Origin: Candidatus Heimdallarchaeota archaeon
Lineage (GTDB): Archaea; Asgardarchaeota; Heimdallarchaeia; Heimdallarchaeales; Heimdallarchaeaceae
Direction of reading: 5' to 3'
NCBI GenBank assembly: GCA_030668875.1
Contig: DAOVER010000005.1
Location: 1-32,000, forward strand
Length of the DNA: 32,000 bases
How positions within the stretch are numbered: the stretch's first letter is position 1; each line of letters opens with the position of its first letter. The translations under genes were made by a program, and so were the position numbers. Shown piece after piece: positions 3,380-28,725 of this stretch. The notes under the pieces were generated by a model, which was not told the origin of the DNA, did no database searches, and worked only from the letters and a program-made list of their open reading frames with translations.

Positions 3380-3715
3380 ATGACTATTGATTTAATTGAA
3401 CGACTAAAAGAATTCGGAAAAAAGATGAAAGACTGGGACAAAATGAAAACAAGTGTTGTTGGTGTTTCTATTGTTAAACTCCCCACAAAAGGAGAGGATC
3501 TCAACTTTGGATTAGAGCTGATACCAGTTAATGAAGATGGTGCTCCATTAAAGAGAAAGGGAGTGTTCATCACCTCGCTAGAACAGTGGGAATCATTCAA
3601 ATCGTTACTTAATAACGAAAAAGCACATGATCTTATAAAAAACATCGATGGGATGAGAAAGCAAAAAGCATTCACAAGTGCATCTGAAAATAATGGAGAA
3701 GTATTAGAACTATAA
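3380..3715 (+). CDS. Conserved archaeal hypothetical protein
   Basis: W-x-K-x-K-T-S-V-x-G-V-x-I-V-K-L-P...E-L-x-P-V...G-x-P-x-K-R-K-G pattern recalls an uncharacterised archaeal family (from memory, no accession asserted). First gene of the glmU run. Confidence 0.7.
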   Translation: MTIDLIERLKEFGKKMKDWDKMKTSVVGVSIVKLPTKGEDLNFGLELIPVNEDGAPLKRKGVFITSLEQWESFKSLLNNEKAHDLIKNIDGMRKQKAFTSASENNGEVLEL

Positions 3716-3737
3716 ACTCTTTTGAGAGGTTACTTAT

Positions 3738-5039
3738 ATGAAAGCCATCCTTTTAGCAGCTGGTGAGGGATTAAGATTAAGACCTTTAACTGAAAATGTT
3801 CCCAAACCTTTATTGAAAATTCTTGATAAAACAATTCTCGAGAGATCAATCAACAACTTATCAAAATGTGGTGTTGAAGGTTTTGTCATTATTACCAATT
3901 ATAAAGAAGAAAAAATCAAAGAACACATTCTTGATAAGTTTCCCTCTTTTAATATTGTTTTTGTACATCAGCCAGAAATAAAAGGTACTGGCAATGCTTT
4001 TCTTTTAGCTAAGAATCATATTCAAGAGGAATTTTTCATAGGTGTTAATGGAGATTGTGTATACTCAATTTCCTTAATAAAGCAGACAGTTGAAGCTGCA
4101 AAAAACAGCACCGTTTCTGTTGGAGGGAAACTAGTATCTGATCCTGAAAATTATGGGGTTATTTTAATTGATGATAATTCTAGCCCTCATGAAATAAAAG
4201 AAAAACCTGCAAAAACAGAAATAAAGGAAGGTTATGCAAATATTGGTTTGTATTCAATAAGTAAGGATATTTTTCCAATTCTAGAAAAGATAGAAGAAAA
4301 AGGAGAAGTTTCTCCACGTGGTGAGTATGAATTACCAGATGCCTTAAACAGAATTCTTAGTGAGAAAAAATATCCAGTTGACCTTGTAACACTTGATGAA
4401 AATGATTACTGGTTCGACATAGGACGGCCTTGGTCACTCCTTGAAGCGAATAAGGCCTTATTGGACATAATTGTAGATGAGCGAAATGGGAAAATTGAGG
4501 ATGGAGTTCATATTAAAGGAAAGGTAGTCATCAAAAAGGGTGCCATAATAAAAAGTGGAACCTATATTGAAGGACCGGTATTTATTGATGAAGAAGCAGT
4601 TGTAGGACCAAATTGTTATATTAGAGGTCATACCTATTTGGGGAAAAAGTCTAAGGCAGGTAACGCTTGTGAGATAAAAAATTCAATAATAGGAGACAAT
4701 ACTCATGTAGCTCATCTTTCTTATGTGGGGGATACTATTATTGGAGAAAACTGTAATTTTGGTGCAGGAACAAAAACCGCAAATTTGCGTTTGGATAAGC
4801 AGTCAATACCCGTTAATGTAAAGGGAAAGAGAGAGGATAGTGGGAGAAGAAAACTAGGAGTGTTTATTGGAGATAATGTTGAAACAGGTATTGGGGCCTT
4901 AATTATGCCTGGAATTAAAATTGGAGGCAGTTCTTGGATAGGATCAGGAACAATAGTTAATGAAGATGTTCCATCGGAATCAACATATTTTGGAACTCAA
5001 TCATATACTCTAAAAAGGAAAAAAACCGATGCTAATTAA
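3738..5039 (+). CDS. glmU: Archaeal bifunctional sugar-1-phosphate nucleotidylyltransferase/acetyltransferase (GlmU-like)
   Basis: LAAGEGLRLRPLT...PKPLL nucleotidyltransferase motif, EKP, W-F-D-I-G-R-P-W, and a C-terminal hexapeptide left-handed beta-helix (AHLSYVGDTIIGENCNFGAGT). Confidence 0.9.
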   Translation: MKAILLAAGEGLRLRPLTENVPKPLLKILDKTILERSINNLSKCGVEGFVIITNYKEEKIKEHILDKFPSFNIVFVHQPEIKGTGNAFLLAKNHIQEEFFIGVNGDCVYSISLIKQTVEAAKNSTVSVGGKLVSDPENYGVILIDDNSSPHEIKEKPAKTEIKEGYANIGLYSISKDIFPILEKIEEKGEVSPRGEYELPDALNRILSEKKYPVDLVTLDENDYWFDIGRPWSLLEANKALLDIIVDERNGKIEDGVHIKGKVVIKKGAIIKSGTYIEGPVFIDEEAVVGPNCYIRGHTYLGKKSKAGNACEIKNSIIGDNTHVAHLSYVGDTIIGENCNFGAGTKTANLRLDKQSIPVNVKGKREDSGRRKLGVFIGDNVETGIGALIMPGIKIGGSSWIGSGTIVNEDVPSESTYFGTQSYTLKRKKTDAN

Positions 5040-6639
5040 AGAGCAAAATGCTATTAAGAAGAAGTGGTCGCCAGATAGAATATCGATAGGTTTAATCTAC
5101 CCAAATACCTATCGAGTCGCTATGACCAGCTTGGGTATGCAATTACTTTATTTCCTTTTTAACAGCTGGGAAAATTTTGCTTGTGAAAGAATTTTCAAAC
5201 CACTTGATTCAAAAGTTCTCCCTTATTCCTTAGAAAATCAAAAAAAACTTTCTGATTTTGATATTTTGGCAATTTCATGTCAATTTGAACACGATTATTT
5301 AGAAGCCATAGCACTATTACATAGAGGTGGAATCAATCCTGATGTCAGAAAACGGGATGAACACACACCCCTTATTTTGATTGGAGGACCATCCCCTACT
5401 TCTAATCCATTTCCCGTGCTCTTTACCCCAGATGTCTTTTTCCTTGGAGATATAGAACCTGTTGCTAATGAGATAAGATTAGCTCTAGAAAAGGAAACAA
5501 AGAAGGAGAAAATAGAAGCTCTTTCCAATGTTCCTGGATGCATGATATTCAACTATCATTATAATGAAACTGGTGAATGGATTGGAAAAAAGGTTCAAAG
5601 CATCCGAACAAAGAATCTTTCTGATTCTTTCTATCCGATAAAACAAATAATACCTGATAATGTCAAAGGTACAAAAAATGAACCAATCTTTGGAAAGGCC
5701 TATTATCTAGAAACAGATAGAGGCTGTTCTGAGCGATGCCTTTTCTGTTTTGTTGGACATTGTCGCTTTCCACGCAAAGAAAGAAGTCTTGAACGATTAA
5801 CGGATATTATTGAGCAAGCAAGTGAAGTAAACGATTTTGAGAAAGTTGTCCTGTATGGTAGCGCTGTTGCTCAATCTGGCATTCTTGATAAACTTATAGA
5901 ATTCATTGTTTCCAAGGGATATGAGGTCTCATGTGCCTCAATTCGAGCAGATTATCTCACAGAGGATCTACTCTTGAATATGCGAAAAGGTAAACAAAGG
6001 ACATTGTCTCTTGCTCCAGAAACTGGGGATGAAAATCAACGATTCGCTATAAACAAACGAATGTCTGATAAAACCATTTATTCTGCATTAAAACTTGCTT
6101 GGGATGTTGGGTTCAGGCGACTCAAGTTATACATGATGTATGGGTTTCCTTCAGAAAAAGAAGATGTAAAACACAAATCTTATGAATTTGTTAAAAAGAT
6201 CCGAGAAAAATATTTTCCAACGGGTCGTATCTCGATATCAATGAATCAATTCATAACAAAAGCGAATACACCTTTTCAATTTGTTCCCATGCTTGGAATT
6301 AGGGATTCCAAAAATCAGCAGAAATGGTATAAATCGAATTTGTATCAACTCAAAAATATTGAAGCATCTTTCTATGCTCCTGAATGGGCGGTCATACAGC
6401 GGATACTATCTTTAAGTGATCACAGCTACTTTCCAATTATAAATCAAGTTTCTTTAATGGGAAATAAAATTGGCAATTGGAAGCGAGTACTCAAAAATAG
6501 TGGGAGTAATTTAGATAATGAAGCAAGTAAAAGTTATGACATTAATACTATGTTTCCATGGGATAATATTACACAACCATTAGAGAAGAAATATCTTATA
6601 AAATCATATCAAAGATATCTTGCAAAGATGGAACTTTAG
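5029..6639 (+). CDS. Radical SAM protein with N-terminal B12-binding-like domain (YgiQ/TIGR03960-like)
   Basis: IYPNTYRVAMTSLG N-terminus, ETDRGCSERCLFC (CxxxCxxC), LAPETG and LKLYMMYGFP motifs. Overlaps glmU by 11 nt. Confidence 0.85.
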   Translation: MLIKEQNAIKKKWSPDRISIGLIYPNTYRVAMTSLGMQLLYFLFNSWENFACERIFKPLDSKVLPYSLENQKKLSDFDILAISCQFEHDYLEAIALLHRGGINPDVRKRDEHTPLILIGGPSPTSNPFPVLFTPDVFFLGDIEPVANEIRLALEKETKKEKIEALSNVPGCMIFNYHYNETGEWIGKKVQSIRTKNLSDSFYPIKQIIPDNVKGTKNEPIFGKAYYLETDRGCSERCLFCFVGHCRFPRKERSLERLTDIIEQASEVNDFEKVVLYGSAVAQSGILDKLIEFIVSKGYEVSCASIRADYLTEDLLLNMRKGKQRTLSLAPETGDENQRFAINKRMSDKTIYSALKLAWDVGFRRLKLYMMYGFPSEKEDVKHKSYEFVKKIREKYFPTGRISISMNQFITKANTPFQFVPMLGIRDSKNQQKWYKSNLYQLKNIEASFYAPEWAVIQRILSLSDHSYFPIINQVSLMGNKIGNWKRVLKNSGSNLDNEASKSYDINTMFPWDNITQPLEKKYLIKSYQRYLAKMEL

Positions 6640-7139
6640 TTTTAGAATAAAAAGTAAAACAGATGTGTTTAGATATTGCCTTTGATAATACGTATTTTTC
6701 TAATTTTTATTCATATTGAGCAAAAAAATAAACGAGGTCTTATATAAAATATTGCAAACTAGTAGGGAGTTAGTCATTTTTTATATAAAGGATTATTCTT
6801 GGTTTTAAGGCATAACAAGCTAGATTTAACGAGGAGATAATACTTGAAATAATAAAATTGCATTTTTTAATTGTACGCATGTTTACGATTATTGAGAAAA
6901 CAAAAAAAAATCTCAAAAAAAATTGTGTCCCATAGGGAGGTTTCTATCATGTTTAGGAGAGATAGTGCAAGAAAATAAACAGATGTATTTGGAAAAGATT
7001 TTTTTTGTAATTTTTCCGTAAAATCTTTAGAGACTCTAAATAAGGCGAATAATGTAAGGATTCGTCTCATTTTTCCAATATCAATTTCAAATAAGTTTAA
7101 AAGGAGAATCTTTCGAGTTTTAAATAATTATCAAAGGAA

Positions 7140-7394
7140 ATGATGATTGTGGCTATAGCACTTGAAAACATAAAAATTAATCAAAAACTTATAATTGGCT
7201 TACCGCCTAGTGCGATTACGATCTTTAAAATTGTTACCGGAAGTGGACCGATAACCAGCAGAGAAATTGTTGATATGTGCAATTTAGCTCCACGAACTGT
7301 TCGACACGGTTTGAAACTTCTAGTTCGAGCAGGGTTAATACAAAAAATACCACATCTTCTTGATATGCGTTCCTGTAAATTTTATGTAGATTGA
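7140..7394 (+). CDS. Small winged-helix (MarR/TrmB-like) DNA-binding protein
   Basis: LPPSA...GPITSREI...LAPRTVRHGLKLL...GLI...DMR wHTH pattern. Start codon uncertain. Confidence 0.8.
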   Translation: MMIVAIALENIKINQKLIIGLPPSAITIFKIVTGSGPITSREIVDMCNLAPRTVRHGLKLLVRAGLIQKIPHLLDMRSCKFYVD

Positions 7395-7429
7395 TTATCT
7401 ACAATCTTTTTATTCTTAAAAAAAGAAGA

Positions 7430-9730
7430 TTAAAGTTCCACATCACTACTGTGGAACAGAACATCACGATTTATAGCAGATTTGAAAAGTTGTAAAAGCA
7501 AATCATTTGTAGTGCGAATTGCTATAGGCACTTCATCAGCTGTTAGGAATGCAAATACAGCTTCATTGTTTCCGTCAAGGATTGCACAATAAACATCCTT
7601 TTTGTCATAATGTTTAAGTTTTAATCCAGGGAATCTTTCAGCTAAAGGTCGAAGTAAGTTTTGATGTCTATTCTTATCAAAATATGATACTAGGTTAATT
7701 CTTTGAGCTTTTGTGTATTGCATCATTTCTTTCAGTAGCTCCTCATCAACATCTGGTGTAACAAGTAAAAGTTCATACTTGGAACGCATTGCAATATCAG
7801 TGATACTCGCCTTTATAGCTTCTTCACCCACAATTATAGAGGTATTGTGTTGTCCCTCAAAGGAGTAAGAAGAAGCAGATCTATCTATTTGTCTAAGTTC
7901 ATCCTCTCTTGTATTAATAACTTGGTAGAAGGTCATAGTTCTTGCTATGACAGAATCGAGTTGAGAGATAAGGATATCATCAATATCTTTTACAACAGAA
8001 GCAACTTGAGAGATCAGTGTGTTAATCTGTATTTCTTCACCTTCAGTCACTTGTCGAATAATCTGTTCTTTTTGCTCTTCTTTGTTATCCTTAAGGTGTT
8101 GTTTCTTGTCGGTTAGATTTGCAGCTAACTCAGTTTGTTTAGTATTTTCTGTTTCCTGAAATTGTTCAACGGATGCACTTATCTTTTCTTTCAGGCCAAC
8201 AGCCATTTTCTCTGCATCTTGTCTGGATTTAGTTATTTCCTGAAGTGTATCAGACTGTAATTTTTGTATAACTTGATTACATTCAAGACTAAACTTGCGG
8301 ATTTCAGTCACGGCTTCTTCCCTTGATTTAATTATCTCATCAGTTGTTGTTTGCTTTAATTGCTCAGTAACATCGGCACAAGATTTGTATGAAGATTCCG
8401 CGTATTTTTCAGTTCCATTTTGAAGCAAGTCTAGTAGGTCACTAGGAAGTAAATCAATTTTTTCTATAGTTTCACTAGTAAGCTGATTCTTCTTTGTCCG
8501 TATAGTTGTTTCTCCTGTTAATTGGAAATGATCCATTTTTGACCGAATATTATCTCTTACATCGTTTAGGGCTAGAACGTGTTGATCTATTAATTGTAAA
8601 CCACTTTCATTTAGATCATTTGCTAGATTTCTAACAGTGTCTCTTGCATCTACTAGTGGGGACTCAATTTGCTTTCTAGCCTTTCCTAGTTTTAAGACAG
8701 TAGAAGCTTCAATTGAATTTAAAGATTCAGCAATTTTGGATGAAAGAAAATTAATTTGTCTATCGATTTGCTCAACACTTCTTCTTAGTTCTTGAGTCTG
8801 CTTAATCTGTTCAGAGAAGAGATTGTTTACCTCTTGAGAGATAGCATCTACCACCGTTTTAGATTCGTTTGTCCAAGATGCATAAGCTTCTTGCCAAATC
8901 GTATCATATTTATCCATAAATAACTCTTGGATATCTGTAACTCGATTAACAAGTTCTTTTAATTCACTATCCAAATCAGGGGCTAATTTTTCAAGAAAGT
9001 CTTTATGGTTATCAGTATGAGCATCAAGACTATTTGCAATCATTTGACTCAAGTTAGCAAATGTTTCTTTGGTTTGTTGTTCAACTGCTTCTGCTAATTG
9101 GTCACTTCTTTGTTTTGCAACATGGTTGAATTGTTTAACAAATGCATTTAATTCCTCTACGAAAGATTGTAATTGTGTTGAGAAAATTATAGGTTGATCC
9201 ATTATTTTGGTTAGATATCCTTCTACTGTTTCTTTATTATCTTTAACATACGCGGAAACGGATTCATGTAGTTCATCACTATGATCAACATATTTCTGAT
9301 AGAGAGCATCGACTACTTGCTTTATCAAACCACTTACAATGCGAATATCAAACACATTCCCTTCTCCAGTAAGTTCCAAGGTTCCTCCAAATTTGGCCTT
9401 TTTCTCCTTATAGTCTTCCTTTGCACCCTTTAAGGAATTAATTACACCGTCTATAGAATAGAGGGCGTCTTTTTCGACAACAATATACTCTTTCAAGAAT
9501 GGTAACATTCCGAAATATTCAGGTGTTCTACCAGATATTTTTTTCAGAAAGCCCAATTCCTCCAGATTCTTCACAGATTGAATTAGAGTAAGTGGGTCTA
9601 AACCTGTAACCACAAGTAGTTCGCCTATAGTAACTTTACCAAGCCCCAATGTTGCTGTATAGACCTTAATGTCAGTTTCACTAAAACCTATACGAGTCAA
9701 TAAAGGAGGTAAAATATCGATTTTGGACAT
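7430..9730 (-). CDS. TrmB-like regulator: N-terminal wHTH, ~540-aa helical/coiled-coil insert, C-terminal TrmB effector-like domain
   Basis: N-terminus IGFSETDIKVY...TIGEL...LEELGFL...PEYF matches the TrmB HTH pattern. C-terminus IIVGEEAIKASI.DI..RSKYELLLVTP...AILDGNNEAVF matches the TrmB/PLD-like effector fold. The middle is Q/E/K/L-rich and nearly free of Pro and Gly. Confidence 0.7.
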   Translation of the reverse strand: MSKIDILPPLLTRIGFSETDIKVYTATLGLGKVTIGELLVVTGLDPLTLIQSVKNLEELGFLKKISGRTPEYFGMLPFLKEYIVVEKDALYSIDGVINSLKGAKEDYKEKKAKFGGTLELTGEGNVFDIRIVSGLIKQVVDALYQKYVDHSDELHESVSAYVKDNKETVEGYLTKIMDQPIIFSTQLQSFVEELNAFVKQFNHVAKQRSDQLAEAVEQQTKETFANLSQMIANSLDAHTDNHKDFLEKLAPDLDSELKELVNRVTDIQELFMDKYDTIWQEAYASWTNESKTVVDAISQEVNNLFSEQIKQTQELRRSVEQIDRQINFLSSKIAESLNSIEASTVLKLGKARKQIESPLVDARDTVRNLANDLNESGLQLIDQHVLALNDVRDNIRSKMDHFQLTGETTIRTKKNQLTSETIEKIDLLPSDLLDLLQNGTEKYAESSYKSCADVTEQLKQTTTDEIIKSREEAVTEIRKFSLECNQVIQKLQSDTLQEITKSRQDAEKMAVGLKEKISASVEQFQETENTKQTELAANLTDKKQHLKDNKEEQKEQIIRQVTEGEEIQINTLISQVASVVKDIDDILISQLDSVIARTMTFYQVINTREDELRQIDRSASSYSFEGQHNTSIIVGEEAIKASITDIAMRSKYELLLVTPDVDEELLKEMMQYTKAQRINLVSYFDKNRHQNLLRPLAERFPGLKLKHYDKKDVYCAILDGNNEAVFAFLTADEVPIAIRTTNDLLLQLFKSAINRDVLFHSSDVEL

Positions 9731-18928: not shown

Positions 18929-19498
18929 ATGGAAATAAAAAATGTTTTTCCTGAAATAGAAAAAATAGAGAATAAAATACTACAAGATAAAGTAGTTAAG
19001 TCACTTGAAAAAGCGATAAGCATGGGAGGATGGAAAGAAGAAGATCTTCAAATGATTCCTTTTACACTTTTGATCCCGGAATTGCTCGAAGGAGATAGCT
19101 TGGTCCCCAAAATAACAATTGTTGATCACATACGAGCAGTAACTCAGATGTGCATTGCTACATATGAGAGATATGAAACACTAGGATTAGCAGATAAACT
19201 CAATAAAGATGAATTAATTGCAGGGGGATTACTTCATGATGTAGGAAAGTTCATTGAATATGAGAGAAACTCTGGAGGAAAAATAGTTCAAAAGATAGAA
19301 GGAAAATTAATTCGACACCCCGCCATGGGTCTAGAAATCGTATATGAATTTGAGTTACCTATATTGGTAAGGCAAGCAATAGTCTTTCACAGTAAAGAGG
19401 GAGATAAAATCCCAAGGTTGCCAGAAGTAGACATAATTCATCGTTGTGATTTTCTTTGCTTTGCTCCTATTAAACAGATACTTGAGAACAGTAATTGA
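18929..19498 (+). CDS. HD-domain metal-dependent phosphohydrolase
   Basis: DHIRAV, LLHDVGK (HD), RHP, FHS.EG and CD motifs; SD GAGGT. Confidence 0.88.
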   Translation: MEIKNVFPEIEKIENKILQDKVVKSLEKAISMGGWKEEDLQMIPFTLLIPELLEGDSLVPKITIVDHIRAVTQMCIATYERYETLGLADKLNKDELIAGGLLHDVGKFIEYERNSGGKIVQKIEGKLIRHPAMGLEIVYEFELPILVRQAIVFHSKEGDKIPRLPEVDIIHRCDFLCFAPIKQILENSN

Positions 19499-19516
19499 CA
19501 ACTAAAGGTGAAAACA

Positions 19517-20650
19517 ATGAAGAAATATAAAATCGCAGTACTACCTGGAGATGGAATAGGAATAGATGTAACCAACGCGGCAATGAAGGTTCTTGAAACC
19601 GTTGGTTTCAGTAATATGGTCGAGTTTACTTGGGGTGACATCGGATGGGAGTTCTGGAAATCAGAAGGAAATCCTCTACCTGATCGAACAATAGATTTAC
19701 TCAAGAATTCAGATTGTTGCTTGTTTTCGGCTATAACTTCTAAACCAAAAGAAGAAGCACAAAAAGAGTTAGTTCCAGAATTGCAAGGAAAAGGATTAGT
19801 GTATTCCAGCCCAATTGTTAAGTTAAGACAACTATTTGATTTGTATACTAATTTACGCCCTTGCAAAGCTTATCCTGGTAATCCCCTAAACTTCAGAGAT
19901 GATTTAGACTTAGTTGTATTTCGTGAAAATACTGAAGGGCTTTATGTTGGAATAGAATTCCATCCAGTTCCTGAAGATGTGATGAATTGTTTAGTAGAGA
20001 ACCATCCTAAAGCTAAACGCTTTGCAGAAGCAGATTTAAACGATGTAGCTATTTCAACAAGAATTTTCACTCGAAAGGGAGTTCAACGAATTCTAAAGGC
20101 CAGTATGGATTATGCAAAAGAGTTTGATTATCCTACCGTTACTGTAGTCGAAAAGCCAAATGTTATTCGTGAGACTTCTGGTTTAATGATTCGAGAAGCT
20201 CGTAAGCTTATCCAAAATTATGAGGGGAAAGAACTTTGGGAAACCAATATAGACGCGATGTGTATGTGGTTAGTCAAAAATCCGCAAAATTATGGTGTTC
20301 TAGTAGCTTCCAACATGTTTGGAGACATTGTTTCTGATTTATGCGCTCAGTTAGTAGGTGGGCTAGGATTTGCTTGTTCAGGAAATATAGGTGATAACTT
20401 CGCGGTGTTTGAACCAAGTCATGGTTCAGCTCCAAAGTATGTAGGACAAAACAAAGTAAATCCTATTGCACAAATTTTATCCGCAAAAATGATGTTAGAC
20501 TGGCTTGGAGAGAAAGAAATGGCCAAAAAGGTTGAGGATGCCGTAGCAGCTGTTATAATAGAAGGAAAAATTCGAACTTACGACATGGGTGGTTCTTCAA
20601 CAACCACAGAAATGGCTGATGCAATTTGTGAGAAAATAAAAGGAATGTAG
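19517..20650 (+). CDS. Isocitrate/isopropylmalate dehydrogenase family, homoisocitrate-dehydrogenase-like
   Basis: LPGDGIG, LR..FDLYTNLRP, RENTEGLY, KPNV, NMFGDIVSD and EPSHGSAP motifs. The specificity loop YSSPIVKLR matches fungal Lys12 (YSSPIVALR). ATG 19517 follows a GGTGA SD. Confidence 0.9.
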   Translation: MKKYKIAVLPGDGIGIDVTNAAMKVLETVGFSNMVEFTWGDIGWEFWKSEGNPLPDRTIDLLKNSDCCLFSAITSKPKEEAQKELVPELQGKGLVYSSPIVKLRQLFDLYTNLRPCKAYPGNPLNFRDDLDLVVFRENTEGLYVGIEFHPVPEDVMNCLVENHPKAKRFAEADLNDVAISTRIFTRKGVQRILKASMDYAKEFDYPTVTVVEKPNVIRETSGLMIREARKLIQNYEGKELWETNIDAMCMWLVKNPQNYGVLVASNMFGDIVSDLCAQLVGGLGFACSGNIGDNFAVFEPSHGSAPKYVGQNKVNPIAQILSAKMMLDWLGEKEMAKKVEDAVAAVIIEGKIRTYDMGGSSTTTEMADAICEKIKGM

Positions 20651-20658
20651 TGATTACA

Positions 20659-20671
20659 TTCTTTCTTTTTT
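20659..20671 (+). terminator. Oligo-T tract after the dehydrogenase
   Basis: TTCTTTCTTTTTT in a 91-nt gap; may be an internal terminator or attenuation point. Confidence 0.3.
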
Positions 20672-20741
20672 GTCATTTATTTTATGTGTTTTAGTTATCT
20701 TAAATAAACACACAGAGATATATTTATTACTTCTTTACTAA

Positions 20742-22031
20742 TTGGTGAAATTGAGTAAAATGGTGGGGTCTACACTAATAGAGAAAATTATCAGAAAGCA
20801 TACAGATGCCTCAGATGAGGAGATTTATCCAGGTAATATTGTATGGATAAATCTTGATTTAGTAACAGCTAGAGACTATGCAGGACCACAAGTTATAGAT
20901 TTGTTTCTGAAACACTATCCTGGTTCCAATACTTTTAACAATAATAAAATAATCTTTACACCAGATTGTTACCCGTATGGAAATGATCCTAAACATGTTA
21001 AAGATCAAGAGAAAATACGTGTTTTTGCTAAAGAACATAATATTCGAGTAACGGATTTAGGATCAGGAATCGGTTCACATTTGTTATTCAGAAGAGGTTT
21101 TTCAAAACCCGGAGATATTGCTTTTGGAGCAGATAGTCATTATAATATATTGGGGGCGTTAGGGATTTTAGGGCAAGGAGCTGGGGATGTAATGTTAGCT
21201 TTCGCTTTCAAAACTGGAAAATCTTGGATAAAGATTCCGGAAACTGTTAAGGTTAAAATAGAGGGTAAATATACCTGGCCTACCACTTCAAAAGATTTGG
21301 CCCTATATGTCTTAAAACAGCTTCATGAGTACGGAATAACTGGAAAAGCTGTTGAATTTTATGGAGAAACAATCTCTGAATTAACAATTGATGATCGCGT
21401 GACATTATGCTCGCTCATTACAGAAGCATCAGGCATGATAGGGTTTGTTTCTGCTGATGAAGTAACTGCAGAATATTATAAACAACTCAACATCGACATT
21501 GAATTACTTTCTGGCGATGAGAATGCAAATTATGCTTCTGAACTTACAATTAATGTTGATAACTTGGGTTTATATGTTGCATGCCCACCTCACCCACACA
21601 ATGTTAAGCCTATTGAAGAGGTTCTAGGAACTCCAATTAAATCAATTATAATTGGCTCTTGCACGAACGGTAGTGCTAGTGACATTCATGAAGCTGCAAG
21701 AGTGCTCAAAGGCTCTCATGTAAATCCAGAAGTCCGATTTGGTATAGTTCCTGCAACTCGTGAAGATTTTGTTGAAATAAATCTAAATGGAGATATGACA
21801 GTAATATTAGAAGCTGGTGGCAATTTCTATGGATCTGGATGTTCAACTTGTGCTAAAGGTCAATATGGGTTAACAGGAGGAGAAACTGCTGTAACTCTAA
21901 CAACCGGCAACCGCAATACACAAGGTAAAATTGGTCCAGCGGACGTTTATCTGGCAAGTCCTGTTGTTGCTGCAGCAACAGCTATTGAAGGAAAGATTGC
22001 TAAACCAATAATAAAAGAGATGATTAAATGA
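20742..22031 (+). CDS. Aconitase-family (LeuC/HacA-like) large subunit with deviant active-site motifs
   Basis: Three Fe-S cysteines (IGSCTNG, GCSTC), ADSH and NRN motifs, but DH is replaced by DC and NRNFxGR by NRNTQGK. Start uncertain (20742, 20751 or 20760). Confidence 0.88.
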   Translation: MVKLSKMVGSTLIEKIIRKHTDASDEEIYPGNIVWINLDLVTARDYAGPQVIDLFLKHYPGSNTFNNNKIIFTPDCYPYGNDPKHVKDQEKIRVFAKEHNIRVTDLGSGIGSHLLFRRGFSKPGDIAFGADSHYNILGALGILGQGAGDVMLAFAFKTGKSWIKIPETVKVKIEGKYTWPTTSKDLALYVLKQLHEYGITGKAVEFYGETISELTIDDRVTLCSLITEASGMIGFVSADEVTAEYYKQLNIDIELLSGDENANYASELTINVDNLGLYVACPPHPHNVKPIEEVLGTPIKSIIIGSCTNGSASDIHEAARVLKGSHVNPEVRFGIVPATREDFVEINLNGDMTVILEAGGNFYGSGCSTCAKGQYGLTGGETAVTLTTGNRNTQGKIGPADVYLASPVVAAATAIEGKIAKPIIKEMIK

Positions 22032-22534
22032 GTAATGAAATTATTGATGGAAAAGCTAGAAAAGTTCTTGTTGATGATATAGATACTGATCAAATATTCC
22101 ACCAGTCACTTTTAACAATTCATAATCCCGAGGAAATCAAACCTCACATTTTCGGTAACTTGGATGGATATCGTGATTTCGGAAAGGAAAATCATACAGA
22201 CAAAATTCTTATTGTAGGAAAAAATTTTGGAAAAGGTTCTACTAGGCAACAAGCTGTAACTGGTTTTCTCGCCCATAAAATCAAGGCCATAATTGGTGCA
22301 TCCTTTGGACCAATTTATTACAGTAATGCCGTAAATGCAGGATTGTTCTTAGTTGAAGTTCCCAAGATTGCAAACTTCTCGATTGAAGAAAATGATGAAT
22401 TAGAGATAAATGTTGCTCAATCCTTGCTTACAAATAAAACACGAGGAACTAGTATTAAATGCGAAAAAATCCCGATTCCAGTTTTAGACATTATCAAAGC
22501 TGGAGGCTTAATGAGCTTAGGGGAGAAAATGTAA
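22028..22534 (+). CDS. Aconitase-family (LeuD/HacB-like) small subunit
   Basis: DIDTDQI, GKNFGKGSTRQQA (canonical GxNFGCGSSRE), SFGPIYYSNAVN.GL and AGGL motifs; ATGA overlap with the large subunit. Confidence 0.88.
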   Translation: MSNEIIDGKARKVLVDDIDTDQIFHQSLLTIHNPEEIKPHIFGNLDGYRDFGKENHTDKILIVGKNFGKGSTRQQAVTGFLAHKIKAIIGASFGPIYYSNAVNAGLFLVEVPKIANFSIEENDELEINVAQSLLTNKTRGTSIKCEKIPIPVLDIIKAGGLMSLGEKM

Positions 22535-22548
22535 TCAGAGGGATTTAA

Positions 22549-24399
22549 GTGACAGGAAAAACATTCTCAGAAAAGTTATTTTCGCTGAAATCTGGAGAGG
22601 ATGTAAGTGCTGGAGACATTGTGTACGTAGAGCCAGACTTAATACTTTCACATGATAATTCAGCATCTATTGTAAAAACCTTTCAAAAAATGGGTGGAAA
22701 AAACATATTATATCCGCAACGTCTAGTTGTTGTTTTGGATCATGATTCTCCTCCAACCAATGTTCAGTTGGCAAATGATCATCAAAGCATACGGGATCTA
22801 GTAACTGAACAAAATATAATAAATTTTTATGATGAAGGAACTGGAATTTGTCATCAACTAATGTCAAATCATGTGTTACCTAATATGCTAGTTGTGGGTT
22901 CAGATTCTCATACATGTACTAGTGGAGCATTTTCATCTTTTGCTGCAGGTATCGACAGAACAGAAACAGCTGGTCTTTGGCTTACTGGAAAAACATGGTT
23001 CAGAGTTCCTGAAACCATAAAGGTAAGGTTACTTGGAAAGTTTACCCCAGGTGTTTATGCTAAGGATTGTGCTCTTTATATAATGAACAAATTAGGATCA
23101 GCTGGTGCAACTTATCAAACTATCGAATTTCATGGAGAAGGAGTAGAAACGCTCTCAATTTCAGAACGCATGACCTTAACCAATTTGGCTTCTGAAATGG
23201 GCGCAAAAACAGCTGTATTTCCACAGGATAGCGTTTTGGTAAAGTGGTTAGAGGAAAAGCATGGAGTTTCATATTTAAGGGAAAGGGAAGTAATCTGGTC
23301 CGATGATGATGCTTTATTTAGTCAAGAAATTGTCATAAATCTCAGTGAGTTAGAACCATTAGTTGCAGTACCTCACCAAGTAGACAATGCAAACAAGATA
23401 TCTGATTTAGATGAGATTCCTATTCAAGAAGCATTTCTTGGGACATGTACAAATGCTAGATTAGATGATCTCCTTATAGCGGCTTCAATTCTAAAAGGTG
23501 AAAAGGTAAAATCAGGAGTACAATTTTTCGTTGCTCCAGCTTCTAGAGAGATTTATCTTGAAGCTCTTGCAAAAGAAGCAATTCAAACATTTGTAGAAGC
23601 AGGTGCAACAATATTATCCTGTAGTTGTGGTCCATGCCTGGGAAAGGGTCAAGGGATTCCAGCAGATGGTTGGAATGTAATTTCCACTGCAAATAGGAAT
23701 TTTCTTGGCAGAATGGGTAACAAAAAATCATACGTTTATCTTGCGTCTCCAGCAACTGTTGCAGCTTCGGTAATTGCAGGGAAGATTGTTGATCCCCGCT
23801 ATTACTTAAAGAAAGATACCAAGAAAACTACTTCATCACTAGAATTAGAAACAAGAATAAAACAAACAAAAACATTAGTTATTAGCTCAAGCGATGATAG
23901 AAAAATAAGCAATGCTTGGAACTATAGCGATATTGATGATTTCAACACGGATCAAATGTTTGCTGGATCATTGACATATGATATTAAATCAGCTGACGGA
24001 GAGAAAATCGTTGCTCATTTGTTTAAAGGGTTGGACGAATCATTTGCTTCTAGAGTAAAAAAAGGAGACGTAATCATAGCTGGATCAAATTTTGGTTGTG
24101 GCTCATCAAGAGAGCATCCTTCAGTAGGATTAGCTTTTGCAGGTGTAAGAGCAGTAATAGTAAAATCTGTTTCACGGATTTTCTATCGGTCTGCAATCAA
24201 CCAAGGATTACCAATAATAGTTCACCCACAGTTTGTTGAAAACTATAATTCAAAGGAAACCGTAATGATAGATTTGCAGAAGGGAAGTATCATGAATGGA
24301 GATAAGGAATACACATTTCCAAAATTACCTACTGAGTTATTAGAAATTTTCAATGCTGGTGGTCTTATCAAATATTATCAAATAAAATATTCAGAATAA
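22549..24399 (+). CDS. Fused large+small subunit aconitase-family enzyme (homoaconitase-like)
   Basis: SHDN, LDH, GICHQ, GSDSHTCTSG, GTCTN, CGPC and NRNFLGRMG, then a C-terminal domain with NTDQM and GSNFGCGSSREH. Domain order as in fungal Lys4/Leu1. Confidence 0.9.
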   Translation: MTGKTFSEKLFSLKSGEDVSAGDIVYVEPDLILSHDNSASIVKTFQKMGGKNILYPQRLVVVLDHDSPPTNVQLANDHQSIRDLVTEQNIINFYDEGTGICHQLMSNHVLPNMLVVGSDSHTCTSGAFSSFAAGIDRTETAGLWLTGKTWFRVPETIKVRLLGKFTPGVYAKDCALYIMNKLGSAGATYQTIEFHGEGVETLSISERMTLTNLASEMGAKTAVFPQDSVLVKWLEEKHGVSYLREREVIWSDDDALFSQEIVINLSELEPLVAVPHQVDNANKISDLDEIPIQEAFLGTCTNARLDDLLIAASILKGEKVKSGVQFFVAPASREIYLEALAKEAIQTFVEAGATILSCSCGPCLGKGQGIPADGWNVISTANRNFLGRMGNKKSYVYLASPATVAASVIAGKIVDPRYYLKKDTKKTTSSLELETRIKQTKTLVISSSDDRKISNAWNYSDIDDFNTDQMFAGSLTYDIKSADGEKIVAHLFKGLDESFASRVKKGDVIIAGSNFGCGSSREHPSVGLAFAGVRAVIVKSVSRIFYRSAINQGLPIIVHPQFVENYNSKETVMIDLQKGSIMNGDKEYTFPKLPTELLEIFNAGGLIKYYQIKYSE

Positions 24400-24411
24400 A
24401 AGGTAGAGATA

Positions 24412-25722
24412 ATGAAATTATACGAATATGAAGCAAAACAAATTTTCGAAAAATTTGGTTTATCAGTGCCAAAGGAGATTGGTATAATAGAAAATATTAG
24501 CGATTTAGAAAATCTAACCTTGAGTTTTCCAATAATGATCAAAGCGATGGTTTTGATTGGAGGAAGAGGAAAAGCGGGTGGAATAAAAAAAGCTGATAAT
24601 ATTTCTGAAGCTAGTGACATCTGTAGCAAGATGTTTGATTTAATTATTCATGGTTATGCTATTAAGAAACTACTTCTTGAGGAAGCTGTAAGTGTAGCAC
24701 ATGAAATTTATCTATCTATAGCCACAGATCCAGCAACATTTGATCTTGTAATTGTTGTATCTGCTAGTGGTGGAGTAGATATTGAAGAAGTTGCAATAAA
24801 TCAACCTGAAGAGATTTGGAAAAAGACCTTAAGAGACAATCCTAAGACTCTTTCAGAGGAGATAAGTAAAGAAGCAGCAGATTTTCTAGTCGGACGAAAT
24901 TCTGAGTTGTCTTCAGTTAAAGAAAGTTTATCTACGACAATAATGGCACTATTTTCAGCTTTTCAACAGTCTGAAGCCAAAATATGTGAGATAAATCCAC
25001 TCATAGTAACCAACGATAATCAACTGATAGCTGCAGATGCAAAATTTGTATTAGATGATAATAGCTTATACAGACAAGCTCCATTGCTTAAATCAATCGG
25101 AATTGACACTCGAAGTAAGAGACATGATGTATCAGAGCAAACCAAGTATGAAGCACAGGCATATATTATTGGTTTTCCATTTCTAGATTTACTTGACAAT
25201 CCAGAGAGTTTTCAGAAAGAACAGGATAAGTTATATGTCGGATTAGTTCCTGGAGGAGCAGGTTATGGCATCTTTTCAATTGATGAAATTGTAAATGTTG
25301 GTAATCGTTATTTTGATGGAAAGGTAATTCCTATCAATTTCATGGATAGCGGGGGGGGGCCTTCCCTTAGTAAAGTTGCAGATATGTTTCACATCTTAAT
25401 GGATCATCCAGCAACTGACCTAATAATTACTAGTCGATTTGGTGGCATATCAAGTTGCGATATATTTATCCAAGGCCTAATTATGGCTTTAAGGGATAGA
25501 TACATCTCAAAGAGAAGAATGATTCCGGTCTTTGGCAGAATGGTTGGAACGGATTTAGCTGCTGCAAGAACTTTTCTTGACAAAGCAAAAAGAGAGTCAC
25601 CTGAACCTTTGAAAGATTTACACATAGTTGTTGGTAATCAAAAGATAATGGCAGATATCATCAAAGATGGTATTGAATATGGTTTTAGAACCAAAAAACA
25701 GAAAGAAACTGGAGGCAATTAA
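24412..25722 (+). CDS. ADP-forming acyl-CoA synthetase beta subunit (SucC / citryl-CoA synthetase / AclB-like)
   Basis: MKLYEYEAK, KA.VL.GGRGKAGG, EINPL and DAK..LDDN ATP-grasp motifs; GGAGYG, NFMDSGGG and FGGISSCD in the substrate-binding domain. Confidence 0.88.
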   Translation: MKLYEYEAKQIFEKFGLSVPKEIGIIENISDLENLTLSFPIMIKAMVLIGGRGKAGGIKKADNISEASDICSKMFDLIIHGYAIKKLLLEEAVSVAHEIYLSIATDPATFDLVIVVSASGGVDIEEVAINQPEEIWKKTLRDNPKTLSEEISKEAADFLVGRNSELSSVKESLSTTIMALFSAFQQSEAKICEINPLIVTNDNQLIAADAKFVLDDNSLYRQAPLLKSIGIDTRSKRHDVSEQTKYEAQAYIIGFPFLDLLDNPESFQKEQDKLYVGLVPGGAGYGIFSIDEIVNVGNRYFDGKVIPINFMDSGGGPSLSKVADMFHILMDHPATDLIITSRFGGISSCDIFIQGLIMALRDRYISKRRMIPVFGRMVGTDLAAARTFLDKAKRESPEPLKDLHIVVGNQKIMADIIKDGIEYGFRTKKQKETGGN

Positions 25723-27864
25723 ATGACAATTGAGAAACTATCAGCTGAACAAGGTTTGCTTCATTATTTCATTAAACAAGTTCGTCCAGAGCTTGCTGAG
25801 AAGATTACAGAAACTAAAATAATCGAAACTATGATTGTAGGATTAGGTAGACAAGGCACAAGGCATGCTCAACTCATGATGGAATATGGTACAAATGTTA
25901 CATGTGGTGTAGCTCAAGGAAAAGGTGGAACTTTAGTCCATGAAAAAATCCCTGTGTATGAAAGTGCAAAAGATGCGGTGGAAAAGCACCCCAATATCGC
26001 GGTAGCCAGCATTTGGAGACACTATTCAACAGCAAAGGATGCCACAATCGAAGTAATTAGAGCTGGGGTACCGATTGTTGTCTTGATTTCTGAGTTTATT
26101 CCACTGAAGGATGTCAGAGACATTCTTGTTGAAGCAAGGAAGCACAAAACGATTCTATTTGGTGGAAATACTCCTGGCATAATTTTTCCTCCTGAAGGAA
26201 TAAAGGTTGGAATGCTTCCAGACATCTTTCAAGCTGAACTGGTTGGGGATAAAATCGGACCAAAGGGTGTCACTATTCTTTCAAGAAGTGGAGCTATTCT
26301 TTACCACTTGTCTGATGCATTAGCAAGTGCAGGTATTGCTCAAAATGGTGTACTTGGTGTTGGAGGAGATGGTGCGATTGGTTCTCGCTTTGTAGACCTT
26401 GTTTCAAGAATTATGAGTTATGAAAATACTGATCTTGTTGTTATCGCTGGAGAAATTGGAGGGATGCAAGAAGAACTTCTTGGACAGGATATGATAGCAC
26501 ATCCAGAAAAATATTCTAAACCTCTTGTTGCTTTGATTTCAGGTGCTAACGCTCCCGAGGGGAAAACAATGGGTCATGCAGGAGCTGTTATCTCCCCTGG
26601 ACAAAAATTTGGAACTTATAACTCAAAGCGAGAGAGTTTGGAGCAAGCTGGAGTAACAGTAGTTAATCATCAACATGACCTAATTGAAGCTGTCAAAACA
26701 AAACTAGAGAGGTCATATTTTGATGTTGGGGGGTATTATAATAAAATGCAGAAGAAATGGGATGAAAAACCACCTGAAAAAACATGGGGTACTTTGATAA
26801 CAAATGCCATGCCTAACAACTTGATAATAAGAGGTTACCCACTACAAGATATTATTGCAAAAAAAGGACTGTTAGAAACATCTTATCTTTTACAAGTTGG
26901 AGAATTTCCAGATGTATCAACATTAGTTGAGCTAGAAAAAATAGCCATGGATGCAGCAAAACAACCGTTTGTAAACCAGAATGCAGTTCCCTCAAGTCCA
27001 GATATCTCAAAGATGTTAGGAACTTATCTCTTGATTGATACTAGCCTATCTAACTACATTAGTTCGACTAGTGATATAGCGAAAATTGCTTCGTTTAGTT
27101 TAGGAAGAATGTTACGGTATCTGGCAATACTCTTAGGAACCACAGATATGCTTGAGAATGCAAGTAATGAAAATACTTCTTTCAGAAAAATGATATATCT
27201 TGGACTTGTTGGAGAAGAACAACCAGATTTATTAAAAGTGAAGTTACTTGAATCCTTGGTAACAGCTTGTGTTGATCACGGCATAACACCCCCATCTGCT
27301 CAAGCAACATTGATATTAGCATCTACTCGTGCAAATTTTGAGGTAGCAATGTCTGCTGGTCTTCAAGCGATTACTGATGTTCATGGAGGAGCAGGGCAAA
27401 AAGCTGCTGGTTTCTTCTTGTCTATAGCAAAGAAAGCTAAAGAAGAGAATATTGATCTTGATGAAGCAACATTTGAATTAATTCGTAATACAATCAAAGC
27501 AGGTAAAAGAATAGAGGGTTTAGGTCACCGTATACATACTCAAGACCCTAGAAGAGATGTTCTTTGGCAACTTGCTGAGGAAGCAGGTTACGCAAAAGAA
27601 TGTGTTGCTATTTCAAAAATAGTAAGCGATGTTTTCTACAGAGTAAGAGGTATGAATCTTCCCATCAATGTAGACGGAGTGATAGCTGCAATTGTTGCGG
27701 ATATGAAATTAGATCCAAAACTAGCTAAGGCAATTTTCGTGTTTGGAAGAACAGCAGGATTGGCAGCCCATTACTACGAAGAAATTAGTACACAACCGCA
27801 AATGAGACGACTAGCATTTGATAAAGCTGTATACAAAGGATCTTCTATACGAGAGGTAAAATAA
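25723..27864 (+). CDS. SucD-like CoA-ligase alpha subunit fused to a citrate-synthase/citryl-CoA-lyase domain (ATP-citrate-lyase alpha-like)
   Basis: GGNTPG, SRSG, GEIGG and MGHAGA (phospho-His, about aa 285). From about aa 350: IRGYPL, DHG..PSA, HGGAG, GLGHR...DPR, NVDG and R..GL.AH..EE. Confidence 0.9.
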   Translation: MTIEKLSAEQGLLHYFIKQVRPELAEKITETKIIETMIVGLGRQGTRHAQLMMEYGTNVTCGVAQGKGGTLVHEKIPVYESAKDAVEKHPNIAVASIWRHYSTAKDATIEVIRAGVPIVVLISEFIPLKDVRDILVEARKHKTILFGGNTPGIIFPPEGIKVGMLPDIFQAELVGDKIGPKGVTILSRSGAILYHLSDALASAGIAQNGVLGVGGDGAIGSRFVDLVSRIMSYENTDLVVIAGEIGGMQEELLGQDMIAHPEKYSKPLVALISGANAPEGKTMGHAGAVISPGQKFGTYNSKRESLEQAGVTVVNHQHDLIEAVKTKLERSYFDVGGYYNKMQKKWDEKPPEKTWGTLITNAMPNNLIIRGYPLQDIIAKKGLLETSYLLQVGEFPDVSTLVELEKIAMDAAKQPFVNQNAVPSSPDISKMLGTYLLIDTSLSNYISSTSDIAKIASFSLGRMLRYLAILLGTTDMLENASNENTSFRKMIYLGLVGEEQPDLLKVKLLESLVTACVDHGITPPSAQATLILASTRANFEVAMSAGLQAITDVHGGAGQKAAGFFLSIAKKAKEENIDLDEATFELIRNTIKAGKRIEGLGHRIHTQDPRRDVLWQLAEEAGYAKECVAISKIVSDVFYRVRGMNLPINVDGVIAAIVADMKLDPKLAKAIFVFGRTAGLAAHYYEEISTQPQMRRLAFDKAVYKGSSIREVK

Positions 27865-27879
27865 CAACTCTAAACCTAA

Positions 27880-28725
27880 TTGAAGATGTCATCATCTTCA
27901 ATTAAAAACAACTTGTTGGAGATAAGAATGAAAGCTTTAGCATTTGAAATAATCGGGAGTATTTTGATTATAAGAGATTCAGCTAATGATAGAGATCTAA
28001 AAGAATTTGCGGAAAAAAAGATGAAGAGACATCCATATATCCAGACAGTTATGTTACAAACCTCAAAAATCCAAGGTCAGAAGAGAACTCGAGAGCTGAA
28101 ATTTCTTCTTGGGAATAAAAACTTTGAAACAATTCACAGAGAACATGGTAATCAATACATACTCAACCCCCTAGACACCTTTTTTTCACCTAGATTAAGC
28201 TTCGAAAGACAGAGAATAGCTGGTCTAGTCAAAGAAAGCGAAGTAATTCTTAATTTCTTTGCGGGGGTTGGACCCTTCAGTATTGCAATTGCCAAAAAAC
28301 AACCAAATTGCTTAATTCACAGTATCGAAATAAATAAAAAATCATGCAATTACATGCGAAAAAATATTGAACTAAATAATTGTGAAGACAATATTATTGT
28401 CTATTGTGGAGATGTTTTTGATATTGCTCCTCACAGATTTCTAAATTCTTCAAATAGAGTGATACTTCCGCTTCCCCTTGAATCAAAACGTTCCTTACCT
28501 TTGGCTTTTAAATGCTTAAAAGATGGTAAGGGTACTATTCACTGGCAAATAACAGATCATTTGAGTTCAAAGGTTGTCGACTTGAATGTAGTAGCCACAA
28601 GTATAGAGGAGATATTTGCAAGAGAGAAAATTTCAACCGAACATAGTATTAGTGAGCATCGTGTTGTTAGATGGATTGCTCCTCATATTGCACACATTGC
28701 AATAGATATTGAGTTAGGACAATGA
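27880..28725 (+). CDS. Trm5/Taw2 (Met-10+) family SAM-dependent tRNA modification enzyme
   Basis: FEIIGSILII, HREHG, FFSPRLSFER.RI, FAGVGPF, EIN and RVILPLP motifs. It appears to lack the N-terminal D1 domain. Confidence 0.88.
   Translation: MKMSSSSIKNNLLEIRMKALAFEIIGSILIIRDSANDRDLKEFAEKKMKRHPYIQTVMLQTSKIQGQKRTRELKFLLGNKNFETIHREHGNQYILNPLDTFFSPRLSFERQRIAGLVKESEVILNFFAGVGPFSIAIAKKQPNCLIHSIEINKKSCNYMRKNIELNNCEDNIIVYCGDVFDIAPHRFLNSSNRVILPLPLESKRSLPLAFKCLKDGKGTIHWQITDHLSSKVVDLNVVATSIEEIFAREKISTEHSISEHRVVRWIAPHIAHIAIDIELGQ

Follow-up and report, generated by a model that had tools for sequence, protein, structure and literature searches.

A conserved seven-gene module of Heimdallarchaeaceae as a candidate non-citrate counterpart of the ATP-citrate lyase, aconitase, and isocitrate dehydrogenase segment

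Which tricarboxylic acid is handled by a ligase–lyase that has the layout of ATP-citrate lyase (ACL) and is encoded beside two aconitase-family enzymes and a dehydrogenase with a homoisocitrate-type substrate loop? The question is raised by a locus in a 3.23-Mb, 92%-complete Asgard genome (Candidatus Heimdallarchaeota archaeon, family Heimdallarchaeaceae), of which we analyzed one stretch of 32,000 nucleotides, hereafter the window (GenBank contig DAOVER010000005.1, positions 1 to 32,000; contig C68 below). Seven open reading frames (ORFs) on the plus strand span 18929–27864, with intergenic gaps of 9, 91, −4, 14, 12, and 0 bp. The initial annotation described them as a tightly packed same-strand block without a homocitrate or isopropylmalate synthase and proposed that it encodes an ATP-linked (homo)citrate lyase pathway. 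Searches with Pfam and NCBIfam profiles, on which our family assignments rest, recovered all seven ORFs with the families originally named, and no HMGL-like synthase is among them. We tentatively propose that the seven genes constitute one pathway module, a parallel, non-citrate counterpart of the segment formed by ACL, aconitase, and isocitrate dehydrogenase (IDH), with the homocitrate series as its likeliest substrates.

The last two genes of the block specify the ligase–lyase. A SucC-like ATP-grasp beta subunit of 436 aa (24412–25722, plus strand; ATP-grasp_2, 139 bits; Ligase_CoA, 28 bits) is followed without a gap by a 713-aa protein (25723–27864, plus strand) in which a SucD-like alpha subunit, with CoA_binding and Ligase_CoA matches, is fused to a citrate-synthase fold. 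The Citrate_synt profile (PF00285) scores 130.1 bits against a Pfam gathering cut-off of 27 and is matched over positions 20–352 of 357, that is, over its full length; the fusion lies below every NCBIfam equivalog cut-off for citrate synthases and citryl-CoA lyases. It carries the phosphohistidine motif GKTMGHAG, and the lyase-domain motifs DHG, GHR..DPR, NVDG, and GR align to those of citryl-CoA lyase (Ccl), with the catalytic His-His-Asp present. The fusion has the CoA-binding domain, phosphohistidine loop, and lyase module of an ACL alpha subunit, in agreement with the ACL-type architecture initially assigned to this gene pair. The C-terminal half of the fusion is nearest Ccl of Hydrogenobacter thermophilus (6hxp, its best PDB match, 118.7 bits), and the N-terminal half is nearest the alpha subunit of succinyl-CoA synthetase (SCS), at 181 bits against roughly 100–105 bits for citryl-CoA synthetase or AclA. 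The SucC-like subunit scores 167 bits against SCS-beta and 85 bits against the large subunit of citryl-CoA synthetase. A Pfam search found no Citrate_bind domain (PF16114) in it, and its family has the loop RFGGISSCD; the corresponding loop is FAGITRCD in the SucC of the same genome and GGRANFT in a beta subunit of ACL type (L091). Because both ligase subunits score closer to SCS than to Ccs, the ligase–lyase is, on sequence grounds, an ACL-like layout built from SCS-like parts.

Among known systems, CcsAB and Ccl of H. thermophilus (6hxq, 6hxp) consist of the same three parts, namely a beta subunit of ATP-grasp type, a CoA-binding alpha subunit with the phosphohistidine, and a lyase of citrate-synthase fold, but there the lyase is separate, whereas in the block alpha subunit and lyase form one polypeptide; the block's lyase domain is also full-length, with about 90–100 residues more than Ccl, and its ligase parts are closer to SCS than to Ccs by the scores just given. 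Type I ACL (AclB/AclA of Chlorobium and Methanothrix, human ACLY; 6hxj, 6hxi, 6hxh) has the same abutting order of beta subunit and alpha–lyase fusion; the block differs in a beta subunit without Citrate_bind and the GGxANFT loop, and in an alpha half that scores about 100 bits against AclA. In other Asgards, AclA is 611–631 aa long and its match to the citrate-synthase profile is confined to the C-terminal half of that profile; type I ACL coexists with the module in several genomes. The postulated type II ACL, a ccsB–ccl fusion of Magnetococcus (Mmc1_3638/3639) and Planctomycetes DG20 that is biochemically uncharacterized (PMC6783814, PMC5459899), likewise joins a small ligase subunit to a lyase; it was compared with the block by its published description. 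A distant 725-aa fusion (31% identity) lies outside the block family and looks derived from CCS/ACL, because its beta partner carries Citrate_bind. The literature that we searched describes type I ACL in Asgards, the postulated type II ACL, and citryl-CoA synthetase and lyase, and contains no description of an SCS-derived fusion family. An unfused version of the ligase–lyase system also exists, and at one such locus (L092, 1679–3169) the beta subunit, of 496 aa, has at its end a Cys-rich extension resembling a two-cluster ferredoxin.

The dehydrogenase gene at 19508–20650 (plus strand) encodes 380 aa (Pfam Iso_dh, 297.8 bits). Its best NCBIfam match is the AksF2 homoisocitrate dehydrogenase (HICDH), at 322.9 bits against a cut-off of 540 (AksF, 283.7 against 500), and it falls below the cut-offs of all NCBIfam IDH equivalogs. 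The substrate loop, YSSPIVKLR, shares its first six residues with that of the Schizosaccharomyces pombe HICDH (YSSPIVALR; PDB 3ty3), in agreement with the fungal-type loop recognized at the outset, and GAITS corresponds to GAATS in the Thermus thermophilus HICDH. In IDHs, a Ser-x-Asn pair (S113 and N115 in Escherichia coli) binds the gamma-carboxylate of isocitrate; the pair is conserved in every canonical IDH that we compared, including those of the same phylum, and the module enzyme keeps the Ser and replaces the Asn with Ile. One position beyond, it has Val in place of an Arg of T. thermophilus HICDH, Arg85, which Miyazaki et al. in 2003 reportedly found to permit isocitrate use. We read these recognition motifs as homoisocitrate-type, not isocitrate-type. 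In its cofactor motif, HGSAPKY, the enzyme resembles NADP-IDHs, with KY residues like those of bacterial NADP-IDH, whereas HICDHs carry HGSAPDI. SPIV-type orthologues with 52–95% identity were found in all six fusion-bearing genomes examined from five lineages; those with at least 77% identity are confined to genomes that have the fusion, and share a contig with it in every case where the two could be located. The fungal HICDH of yeast, Lys12p, has almost no activity on isocitrate (PMC3556520).

Two different aconitase-family enzymes lie between the dehydrogenase and ligase genes, as initially reported. The split one consists of a divergent large subunit of 429 aa from a TTG start (20742–22031, plus strand; Pfam Aconitase, 224 bits), or of 423 aa from an alternative ATG 18 nt downstream, and a matching small subunit of 168 aa (22028–22534, plus strand; Aconitase_C, 51.7 bits) whose gene overlaps that of the large subunit by 4 bp. 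The other, at 22549–24399 (plus strand), is a fused large and small LeuCD/HacA-type dehydratase of 616 aa, whose score of 483.9 bits exceeds the cut-off of the hacA_fam subfamily (385.7) and which reaches no equivalog cut-off; the split pair falls under every NCBIfam cut-off (328.3 bits for hacA_fam). Both retain the Cys ligands of a [4Fe-4S] cluster. The motifs of the fused enzyme are canonical (SHD, GSDSHT, GTCTN, CGPC, NRNFLGR, GSSRE), and those of the split enzyme depart from them: the three Cys ligands are kept in the large subunit, with HD changed to RD, DSHT to DSHY, and NRNFxGR to NRNTQGK, and GSSRE of the small subunit reads GSTRQ. The specificity loop of the split small subunit is LLTI, set against YLRT in Methanocaldococcus jannaschii homoaconitase and YLVY/M in isopropylmalate isomerase. 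The fused enzyme has GSLTYDIKS, with GKYTY in its bacterial orthologues. Canonical Asgard aconitases of 639–649 aa carry ILPLRSN in this place, and neither module dehydratase has an Arg in the domain-4 loop that holds the aconitase Arg equivalent to mitochondrial Arg580. Judged by alignment, the small-domain loops match no characterized type, be it aconitase, homoaconitase, or isopropylmalate isomerase. The fused dehydratase has a Lys in alignment with Arg26 of homoaconitase, but orthologues do not conserve it, and it was dropped as evidence. In Borrarchaeum, Eubacteriales, and Aminicenantales, the dehydratase found with the ligase–lyase fusion is an orthologue of the split type, not of the fused type, with its subunits joined into proteins of 636–660 aa. 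The aminoadipate pathway of fungi and Thermus also needs two aconitase-family enzymes (PMC3556520). With the upper part of that pathway, as found in fungi, Thermus, and archaea, the block shares the fungal HICDH loop and dehydratases of the LeuCD/HacA branch, two in number; it differs in having no DRE-TIM homocitrate synthase, in its NADP-type motif, in its lack of YLRT, and in that no lower lysine pathway was found.

Co-conservation of the module genes is far beyond chance, which bears out the expectation of conserved synteny in the initial annotation. Two further Heimdall lineages have the seven genes in identical order, with fusions 91% (L009) and 66% (L095) identical to that of the window; Borrarchaeum, Bipolaricaulota, Eubacteriales, and Aminicenantales share a core of HD, dehydratase, SucC-like, and fusion genes; and the Thermoplasmatota keep HD, SucC-like, and fusion genes together. 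The core extends across at least five phyla. Homologues of the fusion number more than 500 at about 60–96% identity in Asgard and Thermoplasmatota genomes, and reach 53–57% identity in bacteria. In a survey of the phylum by a 200-genome Asgard sample, with 22 genomes from the window's family, the fusion is the only citrate-synthase fold, and the module the only aconitase-family set and Iso_dh, in 19 of these 22.

In four other lineages, the module stands beside a complete canonical set of citrate enzymes, three of them with type I ACL. Three genomes of another Asgard family (f5; G122, G184, and G119) have a single cluster of a 639–649-aa aconitase with the Arg loop, an IDH with the Ser-x-Asn pair, and type I AclA; AcnA is additionally present in G122 and G184, and in G122 all seven module components lie away from the canonical cluster. 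The thermoplasmatote G219 combines the module with type I AclA, a type-II IDH (SPNGTIR), and a 685-aa aconitase, these three on one contig; in the bipolaricaulote G216, which also has the module, type I AclA adjoins a canonical IDH with IRSLNV; and Borrarchaeum has AcnA, a canonical IDH with YRSVNV, and the module. A complete second set of ligase–lyase, dehydratases, and dehydrogenase is hard to explain if its substrates were the same, and this coexistence speaks for a non-citrate substrate. The canonical clusters are compact, both in the Hodarchaeales-like Asgards (L117, at 86000–98000 of contig C1 of G122; L118; L119) and in the Thermoplasmatota (299313–305577 of contig C6 of G219); AclA and IDH of G216 lie at 3688–7774 of its contig C24. 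In Borrarchaeum (G215, contig C79, 9039–11557), the canonical IDH gene adjoins a weak HMGL-like gene (496 aa, 107.6 bits) that might encode a Re-citrate synthase.

Within its own genome, the module supplies the only citrate-synthase fold, the only two aconitase-family enzymes, and the only Iso_dh protein. An HMGL-like profile search found no homocitrate or isopropylmalate synthase in the 92%-complete genome, in line with the initial annotation, nor in the 22 sampled genomes of the family, and such a synthase occurs in only three of some 27 fusion-bearing Asgard genomes. The suggested anti-correlation with homocitrate synthase is therefore visible among Asgards, although phylogeny confounds it. 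The idea that the operon serves an ATP-conserving homocitrate synthesis for lysine was not supported: neither LysW (archaeal aminoadipate route) nor dihydrodipicolinate synthase (DHDPS; diaminopimelate route) was found in the genome, neither a Lys2-like reductase nor AlaDH/PNT in the genus, and LysW in none of the module-bearing genomes of the class, and lysine biosynthesis was rejected as the module's purpose in this genome and class. So was a saccharopine route, since the single gene of the saccharopine dehydrogenase family (Sacchrp_dh), on contig C22, has an uninformative context and the family is also present in relatives without the module; no lysine-breakdown genes were found beside the module in the loci examined. 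Glutamate dehydrogenase (GDH) and a class-I fumarase are present in the genome, and no flavoprotein of succinate dehydrogenase or fumarate reductase was found there. The organism, in whose 92%-complete genome the searches found neither DHDPS nor LysW nor any HMGL-like enzyme, is probably auxotrophic for lysine and leucine.

From gene families, motifs, co-conservation, and genome contents, we infer substrates, chemistry, and direction as follows. The SucC-like subunit and the SucD half would interconvert a hydroxy-tricarboxylate and its CoA thioester with ATP (or ADP and Pi) by way of the phosphohistidine, and the citrate-synthase-fold domain would interconvert homocitryl-CoA with acetyl-CoA and 2-oxoglutarate. 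The two LeuCD/HacA-type dehydratases would share the interconversion of homocitrate, cis-homoaconitate, and homoisocitrate, and the NADP-type dehydrogenase that of homoisocitrate with 2-oxoadipate and CO2, with the HD protein as a conserved seventh component. Such a system would be an ATP-coupled homocitrate lyase/synthase that replaces the DRE-TIM synthase, with a citrate-synthase fold that uses 2-oxoglutarate, and would link acetyl-CoA and 2-oxoglutarate with 2-oxoadipate, an assignment that we regard as possible rather than probable. In a GDH-containing fermenter without a lysine pathway, its role would be catabolic or redox-related and not lysine biosynthesis; candidates are the conversion of glutamate-derived 2-oxoglutarate to 2-oxoadipate and glutaryl-CoA, or the reverse.

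A citrate module would assign the same genes differently, as a third, SCS-derived type of ATP-citrate lyase, an aconitase made up by the dehydratases, and an NADP-isocitrate dehydrogenase, together linking acetyl-CoA and oxaloacetate with 2-oxoglutarate and, via GDH, with glutamate; the ligase–lyase might also run backwards as an ATP-forming citrate synthase, like the ACL of Desulfobacter postgatei. We consider citrate about as likely as homocitrate, because we know of no citrate-synthase-fold enzyme that accepts 2-oxoglutarate, all known ones using oxaloacetate, and because the lyase domain, most similar in the PDB to a citryl-CoA lyase, retains the catalytic and Arg residues of that enzyme. 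For the same two reasons, and because acetyl-CoA and glutamate would in this family be linked by nothing but the module, the prior strongly favors citrate. Other observations also weigh against homocitrate or in favor of citrate. Since the module is the family's only set of citrate synthase, aconitase, and Iso_dh enzymes and GDH is present (as is the class-I fumarase), a citrate role makes immediate sense; a member of the Eubacteriales (G218) has a canonical citrate synthase with the SPIV-type enzyme as its only Iso_dh; the genes for phosphoenolpyruvate carboxykinase adjacent to the module in Aminicenantales and for CitF in family f5 hint at oxaloacetate and citrate; and the dehydrogenase has a KY motif similar to the one in bacterial NADP-IDH. 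The Arg of homoaconitase YLRT is likewise missing from the dehydratase loops, the searches for LysW, DHDPS, a Lys2-like reductase, and AlaDH/PNT found no source or sink of 2-oxoadipate, and the term homocitryl-CoA does not occur in the literature searched. Citrate, however, leaves unaccounted for a dehydrogenase with a fungal HICDH loop that has neither the invariant Asn of IDH nor the compensating Arg of T. thermophilus HICDH, dehydratases without the Arg loop of canonical aconitases from the same phylum, a beta subunit without the citrate-binding domain and loop of ACL, and a module that duplicates a complete set of ACL or citrate synthase, aconitase, and IDH in four other lineages. It is because of the HICDH-type loop, the non-citrate recognition motifs in all three enzyme classes, and this coexistence that homocitrate is weighed against the prior. 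The homocitrate-lyase operon of the initial annotation is supported in its ACL architecture, HICDH motifs, two dehydratases, and missing synthase, and unsupported in a version that serves lysine biosynthesis.

The dehydratase loops (GKYTY/GSLTYDIKS and HN(R/K)YL(A/H)IT), which fit no characterized class, and the best NCBIfam matches, which are to methanogen AksF2 and HacA models and stay under the cut-off in every case, could also point to a different citrate analogue or to a promiscuous module for 2-oxoacid elongation. The substrate might then arise from oxaloacetate and a non-acetyl acyl-CoA and be isomerized on its oxaloacetate-derived arm, or both citrate and homocitrate might be used, or 2-oxoglutarate might be elongated iteratively, first to 2-oxoadipate and then to 2-oxopimelate, in the way that methanogens make coenzyme B. 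Known variation among citrate-synthase folds is in the acyl-CoA and not in the oxoacid, which speaks for such a reading, but we think all these options unlikely: homoisocitrate accounts for the exact fungal HICDH loop at least as well as any specific candidate, a dicarboxylic oxoacid would suit the three Arg of the lyase domain, and 2-methylisocitrate, a tertiary alcohol, cannot be a substrate of the dehydrogenase. The 2-methylcitrate cycle was rejected on this last ground and on the absence of a methylisocitrate lyase from the cluster. Far less probable still is that the genes are mere neighbors, the ligase pair an SCS and the dehydratases and dehydrogenase remnants of leucine biosynthesis. 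IMG labels the fusion succinyl-CoA synthetase alpha, in keeping with the similarity of its N-terminal half, but canonical SucC and SucD proteins (384 and 300 aa) are encoded separately, on contig C74 of the same genome, both block subunits miss the NCBIfam SCS cut-offs (beta 226.8 against 370, alpha 207.5 against 336 bits), and the alpha subunit shares its polypeptide with a lyase domain. Searches of the genome and of the 22 genomes of the family found no LeuA-type synthase, and gene order and co-occurrence are kept across phyla. A plain SCS and a leucine-pathway remnant were rejected in view of the separate SucC and SucD and of the failure to find a LeuA-type synthase.

The first gene of the block (18929–19498, plus strand) encodes an HD-domain protein of 189 aa (Pfam HD, 38.8 bits). 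In Borrarchaeum, Bipolaricaulota, Eubacteriales, Aminicenantales, and Thermoplasmatota, its orthologues immediately precede either the dehydratase or the SucC-like gene (among them L089, 6234–6812; L093, 7185–7724; L096, 7192–7719; and L112, 10719–11279). The invariant residues are H67, H103-D104, K107, R129-H130, H154, E157, H171, and D174, and the conserved ligand pattern H...HD...H...H...D suggests a two-metal site. An AlphaFold2 model (pLDDT 88.8) has as its best fold match the generic HD domain of YhaM (TM-score 0.65) and matches only generic HD phosphohydrolases; a PDB sequence search returned only YhaM (E 0.32), and an Atlas search only clusters labeled HD domain protein. This small protein is the most faithful neighbor of the ligase–lyase across phyla, and in the Asgard genome G122 it travels with the dehydrogenase instead.

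The HD gene is preceded by an AT-rich spacer of 127 bp, and genes for aIF2-gamma and a PIN protein lie upstream of the block. At its other end, a gene of the Trm5/Taw family of tRNA methyltransferases (27880–28725, same strand) begins 15 bp past the fusion; the gap is such, and the arrangement so repeated in one of the syntenic Heimdall lineages (L009), that the transcript may extend into this gene. In the other (L095), the Trm5/Taw homologue is located elsewhere, on the opposite strand. In two Thermoplasmatota loci (L093, 239–5615; L096, 835–5248), the trio of HD, SucC-like, and fusion genes stands just downstream of archaeal mevalonate-pathway genes (GHMP kinase, UbiD-type decarboxylase, AcnX), which could hint at acetyl-CoA supply for isoprenoids. 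In family f5 (L094, 11166–20012; L111, 3135–9713), the SucC-like and fusion pair lies tail-to-tail with a gene for a CitF-family CoA-transferase; an IOR-like 2-oxoacid:ferredoxin oxidoreductase and a ligase of the AMP-binding type are encoded nearby, as are, at L094, a 3-hydroxyacyl-CoA dehydrogenase and a thiolase.

These genes form a central-carbon module without a characterized member that is present in most of the Heimdallarchaeaceae genomes sampled and scattered through other Asgards, Thermoplasmatota, Bipolaricaulota, Aminicenantales, and Clostridia-like bacteria. The fusion is currently annotated as 'succinyl-CoA synthetase alpha' or 'citrate/2-methylcitrate synthase', and because of such labels, the module is missed, or counted toward the ordinary tricarboxylic acid (TCA) or reductive TCA cycle, when metabolism is reconstructed for the archaea most closely related to eukaryotes. 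If it acts on citrate, it would be a third, independently assembled ATP-citrate lyase and would bear on the origin of ACL and citrate synthase. If it acts on homocitrate, both the reaction of its citrate-synthase fold and the pathway would be new, and in this pathway 2-oxoadipate could proceed by way of glutaryl-CoA to crotonyl-CoA and so allow Asgards and many uncultured anaerobes to oxidize glutamate or 2-oxoglutarate without succinate dehydrogenase; in the reverse direction, it would offer a route for the breakdown of 2-oxoadipate or lysine.

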